From assembly GCA_013239625.1 (NCBI GenBank), contig MU054187.1, positions 744,001-808,000 on the forward strand: a stretch of DNA of 64,000 bases, given 5' to 3'. The stretch's first letter is position 1. Each line of letters begins with the position of its first letter. Both the position numbers and the translations under genes were made by a program. Origin of the DNA: Lama guanicoe (taxonomy: Eukaryota). The notes below the pieces were generated by a model that had not been told where the DNA came from, made no database searches, and saw only the letters and a program-made list of their open reading frames with translations. Below, piece by piece: positions 44,977 to 47,357 of the stretch.

Positions 44977-45158
44977 TCAGTGTGCCACACAGCAGCCAGA
45001 CTCCTCGTGCTTGTGCAGCAGGGACATTCTGGAGAAGGTTTTGGAGCAGTTTTTGCACTGGTATTTCTTGACGTCCGAGTGTGTCTGCAGGTGGGCCCTC
45101 AGATTTGACCTGTCTGCAAATGCCCTGCTGCAGTGAGGGCAGGAGAAGGGCTTCTCCC
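44977..45158 (-). CDS. SNAI2: SNAI2 coding exon 3: zinc fingers 4-5 and stop
   Basis: Acceptor cccccag|GG. Encodes [60 protein letters not shown], with TGA at 44979-44977. Exons sum to 79+546+182=807 nt = 268 aa plus stop. Confidence 0.99.
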
Positions 45159-46023
45159 CTGGGGGCGGGGCGGGGGATGGAGAGAGAAAGATGGTCAGTG
45201 CTTTCAGAGGAAACAAGAAGCCAGGTCACATTTATGAGTAACAGCTACATTTTGCCAAAAGAATGAGAAACAGCAAAACTTGATTACATTTCCCCAGAGT
45301 GCATACTTATTTCAATGTCCGGCCCTTTAAGATAAATTTGCACTTTGCCTTAAAAACAGCAAATTTTAAAAAAAAGAGAGAGAGAATATTCTGCCTGCTG
45401 CCAGTCACGCAGAAATAATTCCTGCAGCTCTGGGGCTTCACTGGTAGAGCACTGGCAGGTGCAGCTGAGGGCAAGCTCCTCCCCAAGCTTCCCAGCATTT
45501 CTCCTTTCCCCTCCTGCCGTGTTATAAGCGAGGCTGGACAGATGCCTTGACACCCTGCAGGGTGATTTTGTGCTAGGAATAGAAAATTCAGCAGCAAAAC
45601 CCAAACCAGACCGACCATCAGAAGCAAATTCAGCCTTGCCACCCAGCTCGCTGGGGGGTGACAGGTGTCCCCTTCATCTGCCTGTCTGCACCCTCAGTTC
45701 AGCTAGCCACGCGTGTATTGCTGATTTCAGGGAGCTGCTTCACAGAAGCCACATTCCCGGACTGCCTTCCTGACTTTCTAACTGATCTTTGAGACCAAAC
45801 CCTCCGAGTCTACTTCCCAAAGCCTCAGTGCTGCTTGCGGCCTCTGGGGCAGAGGCTGTGAGCCAGCCCTTCGTGCCCCGACCACTTTCTGAGTCGGCAG
45901 GAAGAAGCTACAGATGGTCACCCATCATGGAAAGCACTGTGTCGCTGCTTCATGCAGACAGGACAGGCAGCCCTGAGCTTCCTCCTGTCGGACAGCAACG
46001 CCCCGTCCCCGTTTTCCTCTTAC

Positions 46024-46569
46024 CAGTGTGCGTTCTAATGTGTCCTTGCAGCAGCCAGGGCCTGGAGAACGCCTTGCCACAGATCTTGCAGACACAAGGC
46101 AAGGTGTGGGTCCGAATGTGCATCTTGAGGGCGCCCAGGCTTACATACTCCTTGTCGCAGTATCTGCAGCTGAAGGACTTCCTGGCCTGGGCGCCGCAGT
46201 GCAGCTGCTTGTGCTTGCCCAGCCCCGAGAAGGTGGAGTAGGTTTTGTTGCATAAATTGCACTGAAACTTTTCAGCTTCAATGGCGTGAGGGTCTGAGAG
46301 CTTGGACTGTAGTCTTTCCTCTTCATCACTAATGGGGCTCTCCGAGCCGCTGTGGTCCTTGGACGAGGTGTCAGACGGAGGAGGGGGACTCACGCGCCCC
46401 AGGGATGAGGGGTATCCGGATAGAGGAGACAGGCCGCTGGGCGGCGGGCCGTGGAACGGGGCGGCGGCGGCCCACACGGTGATGGGGCTGTAGGCTCCCG
46501 AGCTGAGGATCTCCGGCTGCGGGATGACGGGCACGGAGTAGCTCTCGTAGAGGTACGGGGAAACGATCA
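46024..46569 (-). CDS. SNAI2: SNAI2 coding exon 2: SLUG domain and C2H2 zinc fingers 1-3
   Basis: Acceptor ccccgcag|TG. Encodes [12 protein letters not shown]...[28 protein letters not shown] (SLUG domain) and the fingers CNLC, CRYC, CKIC. 546 nt, donor G|GTAAGA. Confidence 0.99.
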
Positions 46570-47278
46570 CTGCGGGGTGGGGTGGGGCGGGAGGAGAGCA
46601 AGGTGAAACAACGTGGAAGCACCCTAGGAGGCGACTGGGCAACACGCACAGGACTTGAGGACCGGGGGTGGGGGGGGCGCGCTCGTGGGGAGGACGCGCG
46701 CAGGGAGGGCATTCCCTTCCCTCCCCCAGTGCTGGCGGTCCTTGTGCTTAAGGCATGTCCGCGGAGGGTCCCGGGGGCTGGCCTGGCCCTGCGGTCAGCG
46801 AGCGCGGCCGGGCCCGCGCCTTCGCCGTCCCCGGCGAGGGGGAGCCTCCCACCCTTTTGAAAGATACGGAAAAGTTGCTTCCATTTTCTGCGTGGGCTGC
46901 TGGCAGGGCTTACGACCGTGAGCACAAAGATGTGCGTGAATCAAGCTGCTTTCTAAAGGAAGGGAGCCTTAGTACATGAAAAAAAAGGCAACAATTCACC
47001 CTTTACGCATCGCCTCACTCATCCTCCACGTACTCATTATGCAAGTACGCACACGCTTCAGAAAATGACGTTGCAAGAGTAGAACGGAGTCGTCCTTGCC
47101 AGTTAGGAGTTTGAAAAGTTTTGAATTAAAACGGCCTAGATGATCAAAGGAACGCCCGCTCTTTCAGGTCGCCGTTTAGCGGCAGACAGCTCAGCCTCTC
47201 GCTCTTTTGGAACCGAAGCTGAGCTGCAGCGGACACCAGTATTTGTCTATTTACGGGCAGCTAAAGGTCCCTGTTTAC

Positions 47279-47357
47279 CTGTGTGTGTGTCCAGCTCGCC
47301 ATAGTTGGGCTTCTTGGAGGCGTTGAAATGCTTCTTGACCAGGAAGGAGCGCGGCAT
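47279..47357 (-). CDS. SNAI2: SNAI2 (Slug) coding exon 1, SNAG repression domain
   Basis: ATG at 47357 gives MPRSFLVKKHFNASKKPNYGELDTHT, the Snail-family SNAG N-terminus. 79 nt, ends in phase 1 at donor G|GTAAAC (GT at 47278-47277). Confidence 0.99.

Follow-up and report, generated by a model that had tools for sequence, protein, structure and literature searches.

The window, the 64,000-nucleotide stretch of DNA analysed here, carries an ordinary, intact camelid SNAI2 gene close to telomere repeats, and we consider it quite probable that subtelomeric GC-biased gene conversion (gBGC) has fixed in this gene a set of mostly tolerated amino-acid changes from A/T to G/C (W>S). The initial annotation had proposed gBGC from a count of amino-acid differences. 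That inference is strengthened by the telomere-proximal position of the gene and by the pattern of substitution in neutral repeats, but the count itself turned out to be weak, because five of the 15 changes are foreign to the lineage, one change in the opposite direction was masked, and the SNAI2 of other mammals leans W>S too. It is the scaffold context, going beyond the protein tally, that supplies the strong evidence. The features on which the argument depends are as follows.

1..64000, no strand: the whole window, equivalent to C2563:744001-808000, in the GC-raised subtelomeric zone (GC 0.556, CpG o/e 0.62).
43930..44976, minus strand: likely SNAI2 3′ UTR of presumed extent, with AATAAA near 43947-43952.
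44977..45158, minus strand: third coding exon of SNAI2 (codons 209-268 with the TGA stop), encoding zinc fingers 4-5; holds the artiodactyl-shared N219S.
46024..46569, minus strand: SNAI2 coding exon 2, codons 27-208, with the Pro/Ser region, SLUG domain and zinc fingers 1-3.
46163..46219, minus strand: end of finger 1, linker and finger 2 knuckle, with A144G (artiodactyl-shared), D152G, S155A and K162R.
46244..46336, minus strand: codons 105-135, from the SLUG domain end to finger 1, with A/T-rich third positions (GC3 14/31, 0.45).
46436..46564, minus strand: codons 29-71, with seven of the 11 lineage-specific changes (I29V, P38S, T60A, T61A, A67G, L69P, N71S).
47279..47357, minus strand: SNAI2 coding exon 1, codons 1-26, SNAG domain; S20G at 47300-47298.
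46400..48400, no strand: CpG-island-like region covering the promoter, exon 1, intron 1 and 5′ exon 2.

The SNAI2 gene is intact on the minus strand, where three exons separated by GT-AG introns give 807 bp encoding 268 aa, with a GC3 of 0.78 (205/263). Its top matches are named SNAI2, and it is linked to SPIDR, PRKDC and MCM4, which we take to be the human gene order. The gene is single copy in the genome, the three other matches being zinc-finger matches at 77-82%. Residues 1-9, the SNAG motif at the N terminus, are the same as in other mammals. The zinc ligands, the SLUG domain and S87/S92/S96/S100/S104 had been described as intact, and comparison with the carnivore protein P0093 bears this out: the SLUG domain (whose bounds we take to be ∼96-123) is the same, all 20 Cys/His ligand positions of the five zinc fingers agree (Pfam zf-C2H2 was detected), and the five serines, of which S92-S104 are presumably Slug sites, are also the same. 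No lineage-specific change was found at the zinc ligands or at S87, S158, S247, S251, S254, K8 and K116, the residues given as Slug modification sites in PMC6582791. Among the 16 long ORFs of the window, Pfam detected no further coding sequence. In 200-bp bins, the CpG-island-like region has a GC of 0.47-0.70 and a CpG o/e of 0.5-1.2. At 47367-47408 a 7-bp unit made of G and C alone is repeated about six times head to tail; the array stops 10 bp before the SNAI2 start codon and may form a variable 5′ UTR repeat. A tRNA-like SINE is present just downstream of the gene (43508-43620; 30 matches in the ∼470 kb sampled), and the window also contains a GC-rich 39-bp minisatellite in four copies that are 94% identical (27732-27887). 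GC-rich minisatellites are common near telomeres.

The protein was compared with an alignment of 53 named SNAI2 proteins, 48 of which were used in the counts. Sites 54, 62, 72 and 113, where the reference differs from the outgroups, were left out, as were the N-termini of tarsier and meerkat, which are mis-predicted, and the duplicate ruminant and canid isoforms. Since human, named pig and camelid SNAI2 were not among the cluster members listed, simian proteins served as the reference: a chimpanzee isoform (P0209, residues 1-89) and a marmoset protein (P0221, residues 28-268) that agree over their overlap. Against these stand-ins we see exactly the 15 differences that had been listed against human, and codon logic gives the same tally of 13 A/T>G/C changes and two neutral C>G changes.

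The tally altered once the changes were polarised. Five of the 15 did not arise in the window lineage. Most placentals have P68 and P80, which makes the simian Q68 and S80 the derived, S>W states; the other three, M39V, A144G and N219S, are shared, with V39, G144 and S219 present in 10/10 ruminant, hippo and whale rows; the suggestion that some changes would be common to other artiodactyls thus holds for 3/15. That most of the residues might be ancestral for Laurasiatheria had been named as an outcome that would count against gBGC, and only P68 and P80 are ancestral in this sense. The statement that no change runs from G/C to A/T is wrong, as P38S is such a change, masked because simians also have S38. 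In simians the trend is the opposite of that in the window lineage: P38S, P68Q and P80S are S>W, and S67A is the one W>S change. A two-species comparison with human overstates the G/C-ward bias. The lineage-specific set that is left comprises 11 changes (S20G, I29V, P38S, T60A, T61A, A67G, L69P, N71S, D152G, S155A and K162R), made up of nine W>S, one S>W and one neutral, or 8:1:2 if residue 71 derived from T as in whales. Codons 29-71, with seven of the set, also carry M39V, common to artiodactyls. The G36 and S216 that ruminants and whales have are absent from the window protein; this, with the shared G144 and S219 and the MCM4 match given below, identifies the genome as that of a camelid. 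One further protein, P0011, shares A67, G144 and V29 but keeps M39; our guess is that it may represent a further artiodactyl lineage, in which case I29V would have arisen earlier or by convergence, and M39V would not be common to all artiodactyls.

The first point to note about the polarised counts is that their significance depends on the comparison. The 9:1 ratio of W>S to S>W differs from 50:50 (binomial p=0.021), yet set against the pooled changes in non-artiodactyl placental SNAI2 (60:27) it gives a Fisher p of 0.27, and against the same placentals without shrew and pocket mouse (36:26) a p of 0.079. For the named artiodactyls pooled (25:5 distinct changes), the comparison with all non-artiodactyls gives p=0.12; it falls to p=0.019 only with shrew and pocket mouse removed. 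Taken alone, these amino-acid counts are suggestive of gBGC, not decisive. Relative-rate tests gave 13:1 against horse and 14:0 against an arctoid carnivore, and over five comparisons (horse, rhino, two carnivores and a bat) the window lineage had 13-15 changes against 0-3, with p<=0.008 in all five. The rate is not raised relative to Pecora (9:10, p=0.82), hippo (9:4) or whales (9:3 and 9:5). On a fixed tree the window terminal branch is 0.043, with Pecora reaching 0.048 from the artiodactyl node, the shrew level at 0.041 and the pocket mouse longest at 0.091. Judged from these proteins, the acceleration of SNAI2 is artiodactyl-wide. The lineage-specific changes are concentrated on variable sites: eight of the 11 fall among the 50 of 268 positions that differ within a set of 33 non-artiodactyl placentals (p=1e-4), and seven of the 11 new residues are found in other mammals. 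Two other mammals draw attention in the same counts. The pocket mouse protein (P0142, Perognathus) has 22 counted changes, 16 of them W>S and one S>W, and the shrew protein (P0100, Sorex) has 10, with eight W>S and no S>W; G20, V29, A61 and A155 are common to the window lineage and the pocket mouse. On this protein evidence both are independent candidates for the same process. Metagenome contigs were also searched for mammalian SNAI2 orthologue DNA and none was found: three loci came up, and identity was 74% and 83% in the pair that was checked.

Could relaxed purifying selection on artiodactyl SNAI2 produce the same pattern, with the W>S direction largely built in? We regard this as improbable, while acknowledging that it accounts for several observations. 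At the tolerant sites of this protein the codons are for S, T, N, I or M, and these most readily undergo conservative change through A>G or T>C; a W>S direction would hence be expected. Non-artiodactyl placentals also show 60:27 in favour of W>S, ruminants and whales are accelerated too, and changes such as N71S recur (in 12 other rows). Against this, the conservative mutational opportunity in the SNAI2 CDS is balanced (528 W>S and 506 S>W), and the SNAG and SLUG domains, the zinc ligands and the checked phosphosites are fully retained. Relaxation also leaves unexplained the repeat bias and the scaffold GC gradient, described below, and the GC3 of 0.78.

The scaffold carrying the window (C2563; 25,277,827 bp) opens with telomere hexamers, in an array of only ∼48 bp in the assembly. 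The genes follow in the order SPIDR (7-113 kb), PRKDC (∼340 kb), MCM4 (411-422 kb) and SNAI2 (789-791 kb), which places SNAI2 0.79 Mb from the hexamers at scaffold base 1, themselves outside the window. The first coding exon of SPIDR lies only ∼7 kb from the hexamers (C2563:1-48; SPIDR 6905-113213). We take the SPIDR-PRKDC-MCM4-SNAI2 segment to be pericentromeric in human, at 8q11 by the chromosome 8 centromere. GC content falls with distance from the scaffold end, from 0.525 at 0.25-1 Mb (n=55) through 0.476 at 1-3 Mb (n=6) to 0.381 at 12-25 Mb (n=53), with a Spearman correlation of -0.74 over 128 sampled stretches. The zone also has the higher CpG o/e, 0.55 compared with 0.25 in the interior. 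GC does not peak at the tip itself, where three stretches <0.25 Mb have 0.44, and within 0-7 Mb alone, in a first, sparse sample, the trend was flat (rho -0.10). The MCM4 exons (C2563:411368-421626), which are 98-100% identical in five exons to the Camelus ferus protein P0190, have a GC3 of ∼0.76 (312/410), and PRKDC and MCM4 probably share the G/C-ward bias. Partial copies of SPIDR are present on other scaffolds: two exons with similar spacing (C6804:9043760-9050625), an apparently intronless 5′ part (C55227:699881-700290) and two single-exon copies (C866:2867807-2867998 and C7248:10362-10547). They could help to date the GC shift.

As a test on neutral DNA, repeat copies of the subtelomeric zone were aligned with interior copies, giving 96 non-overlapping pairs and 25,227 columns. 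All repeats were used in place of a single SINE, of which there were too few copies (30). The repeats are unclassified and old (mostly 65-82% identical), and only four pairs lie within the window (28:17). At non-CpG W/S mismatches the subtelomeric copy has S where the interior copy has W in 2205 of 3456 cases (0.64, bootstrap CI 0.58-0.70). The interior-versus-interior control gave 0.46 (0.43-0.50), and the zone-versus-zone control 0.54, not 0.50. Polarity was then taken from the agreement of two interior copies in a three-way test. Relative to the interior, both W>S classes are raised in the zone (A>G 1.63, A>C 1.64), both S>W classes are lowered (C>T 0.74, C>A 0.64), and the GC-conservative classes are close to unity (A>T 0.92, C>G 1.09). 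The estimated equilibrium GC is 0.52 for the zone, 0.62 at 0.56-0.81 Mb and 0.32 for the interior. The log-ratio shift is 0.83 (CI 0.48-1.19), reaching 1.17 and 1.11 in the zones flanking SNAI2, and is 1.07 when the three loci with most W>S are dropped. The effect is widespread, with 33 of 35 zone loci that have enough sites lying above the interior mean, compared with 25 of 41 interior loci.

These ratios bear directly on whether the chromosome end simply has a different mutation spectrum, for example through less methyl-cytosine decay or different repair. We think a regional mutation bias of this kind unlikely as the explanation. The higher CpG o/e in the zone (0.55 against 0.25) would be expected of it, and substitution counts alone do not tell mutation from fixation. 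The bias nevertheless persists outside CpG context and is equal in transitions and transversions, and it raises W>S and lowers S>W but does not alter A>T or C>G, as expected of a single fixation bias. Because W>S is up, S>W down and the GC-conservative classes flat, the data fit a fixation bias and not a difference in CpG decay.

Recombination is high near telomeres, and heteroduplex mismatch repair favours G/C, acting like weak selection of strength B. The gBGC account would thus have recombination frequent at this chromosome end, the G/C-ward bias in the zone reflecting the fixation bias of meiotic repair, and the process starting in the artiodactyl ancestor. In quantitative terms, the regional B of 0.8-1.2 speeds W>S fixation 1.5- to 2.9-fold, which is below the acceleration seen; the account therefore needs a bias that is stronger locally, or a degree of relaxation. 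If third positions are at equilibrium, the GC3 of 0.85 in codons 1-104 (87/102) and 0.83 in codons 136-208 corresponds to a B near 2.4-2.5, while B=2.6 would give a 3- to 10-fold acceleration. A local B of ∼2-2.5 at the CpG-island end of SNAI2, above the regional mean of ∼0.8-1.2, may therefore apply on that equilibrium assumption. CpG-island hypomethylation could inflate this local estimate.

A further possibility is that the changes reflect positive selection on camelid SNAI2 function, in skin, neural crest or wound biology. Three changes are clustered at the finger 1-2 junction, and G67, P69, G152 and R162 are found in 0/176 other SNAI2 proteins. Two of these replace near-invariant residues, position 152 being D in 174/176 and position 162 being K in 175/175 other SNAI2 proteins, from fish to mammals; neither is a zinc ligand. 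Nevertheless, we think selection very unlikely. The direction of the changes is the same as that of the neutral regional bias, there is no enrichment at constrained functional sites (8/11 being on variable ones), and four of the same residues recur in the pocket mouse, a lineage with 16:1 in favour of W>S. There are only ∼0.018 changes per non-synonymous site (dN ∼0.018; 11 of ∼603 sites), a dN/dS above 1 seems unlikely, and a literature search found no paper tying camel SNAI2 to selection. As the initial annotation put forward, the changes could mimic positive selection, and a branch test may yet pick out SNAI2. Under gBGC, D152G and K162R would be slightly deleterious passengers, for which they are the best candidates among the changes. 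Finally, the possibility that the differences stem from mistakes in the assembly, or from a paralog or pseudogene that has diverged, deserves scarcely any credence, and a wholesale assembly error in particular is unlikely, as the frame is open, the splice sites are canonical, the gene is single copy and, measuring read support as the sampled-word content of runs (one of which may be the assembly source), 0.90-0.94 of the words are present in 14 runs, DNA or unlabelled, that span six studies and three organism labels, and as much as 0.59 in RNA runs.

One part of the gene does not follow the regional trend. Codons 105-135 have a GC3 of 0.45 compared with 0.76-0.85 elsewhere in SNAI2, and the A/T-richness of their third positions is unusual in shuffles within amino acids (best 30-codon window p=0.001; five window sizes, p 0.001-0.05). 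A search for an RNA fold in these codons found no stable structure (z=-1.6; 15/200 shuffles fold as well). The likely 3′ UTR is similarly low in GC, at ∼0.39 within a region of 0.55. Their composition suggests that both are candidates for nucleotide-level constraint acting against the bias. A bolder and, in our view, doubtful reading is that SNAI2 is a natural replicate of gBGC, in which the same few residues would be driven likewise at recombining chromosome ends (in camelids, other artiodactyls and perhaps pocket mouse and shrew), D152 and K162 would have been lost as load, and codons 105-135 (93 bp) would be an unrecognised DNA or RNA element.

Accelerated coding regions near telomeres attributed to gBGC form a class that is already well described, of which this locus is likely a new example, judged on the features tested. 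Our search of the literature on camelid SNAI2 selection, GC content, synonymous constraint and gBGC, which excluded most subscription journals, returned no paper on the locus. In PMC2631073 (Berglund, Pollard, Webster 2009), accelerated human exons with a W>S bias lie near telomeres and have biased flanks. SNAI2 resembles these exons in its coding acceleration, W>S direction, non-coding flank bias and telomere proximity, but its bias is broad (several Mb), old and common to artiodactyl lineages. The model in that paper raises dN/dS when f>1e-4 at an Ne of 10,000 (4Nf=4 by our own arithmetic), and the regional strength at SNAI2 (0.8-1.2) is below that level. The gerbil PDX1 gene (PMC7574485) is likewise a conserved developmental transcription factor with GC-ward amino-acid changes ascribed to gBGC and not to selection. 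Unlike PDX1 and the gerbil GC islands of that paper, where synonymous GC is near 100%, SNAI2 has a GC3 of 0.78, with 11/268 residues changed and the zinc ligands unchanged; at 205/263 it falls short of an extreme, gerbil-type island. The excerpts of PMC6636035 and PMC8336415 describe mammalian subtelomeric peaks of GC% and GARP% with faster protein evolution, and SNAI2 is like the genes described there in its near-telomere site, higher GC, more G/A/R/P residues and faster divergence. Those excerpts concern subtelomeres shared among eutherians, whereas the SNAI2 peak, given the human 8q11 site, is lineage-restricted. SNAI2 is not named in the main text of either paper.

The gBGC interpretation has consequences beyond this gene. 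If the A/T-retaining stretch of codons 105-135 is a true constraint, lineages exposed to gBGC could reveal hidden regulatory sequence in coding exons. In artiodactyl and camelid selection scans, the SPIDR-PRKDC-MCM4-SNAI2 block would seem accelerated and convergent for positional reasons.
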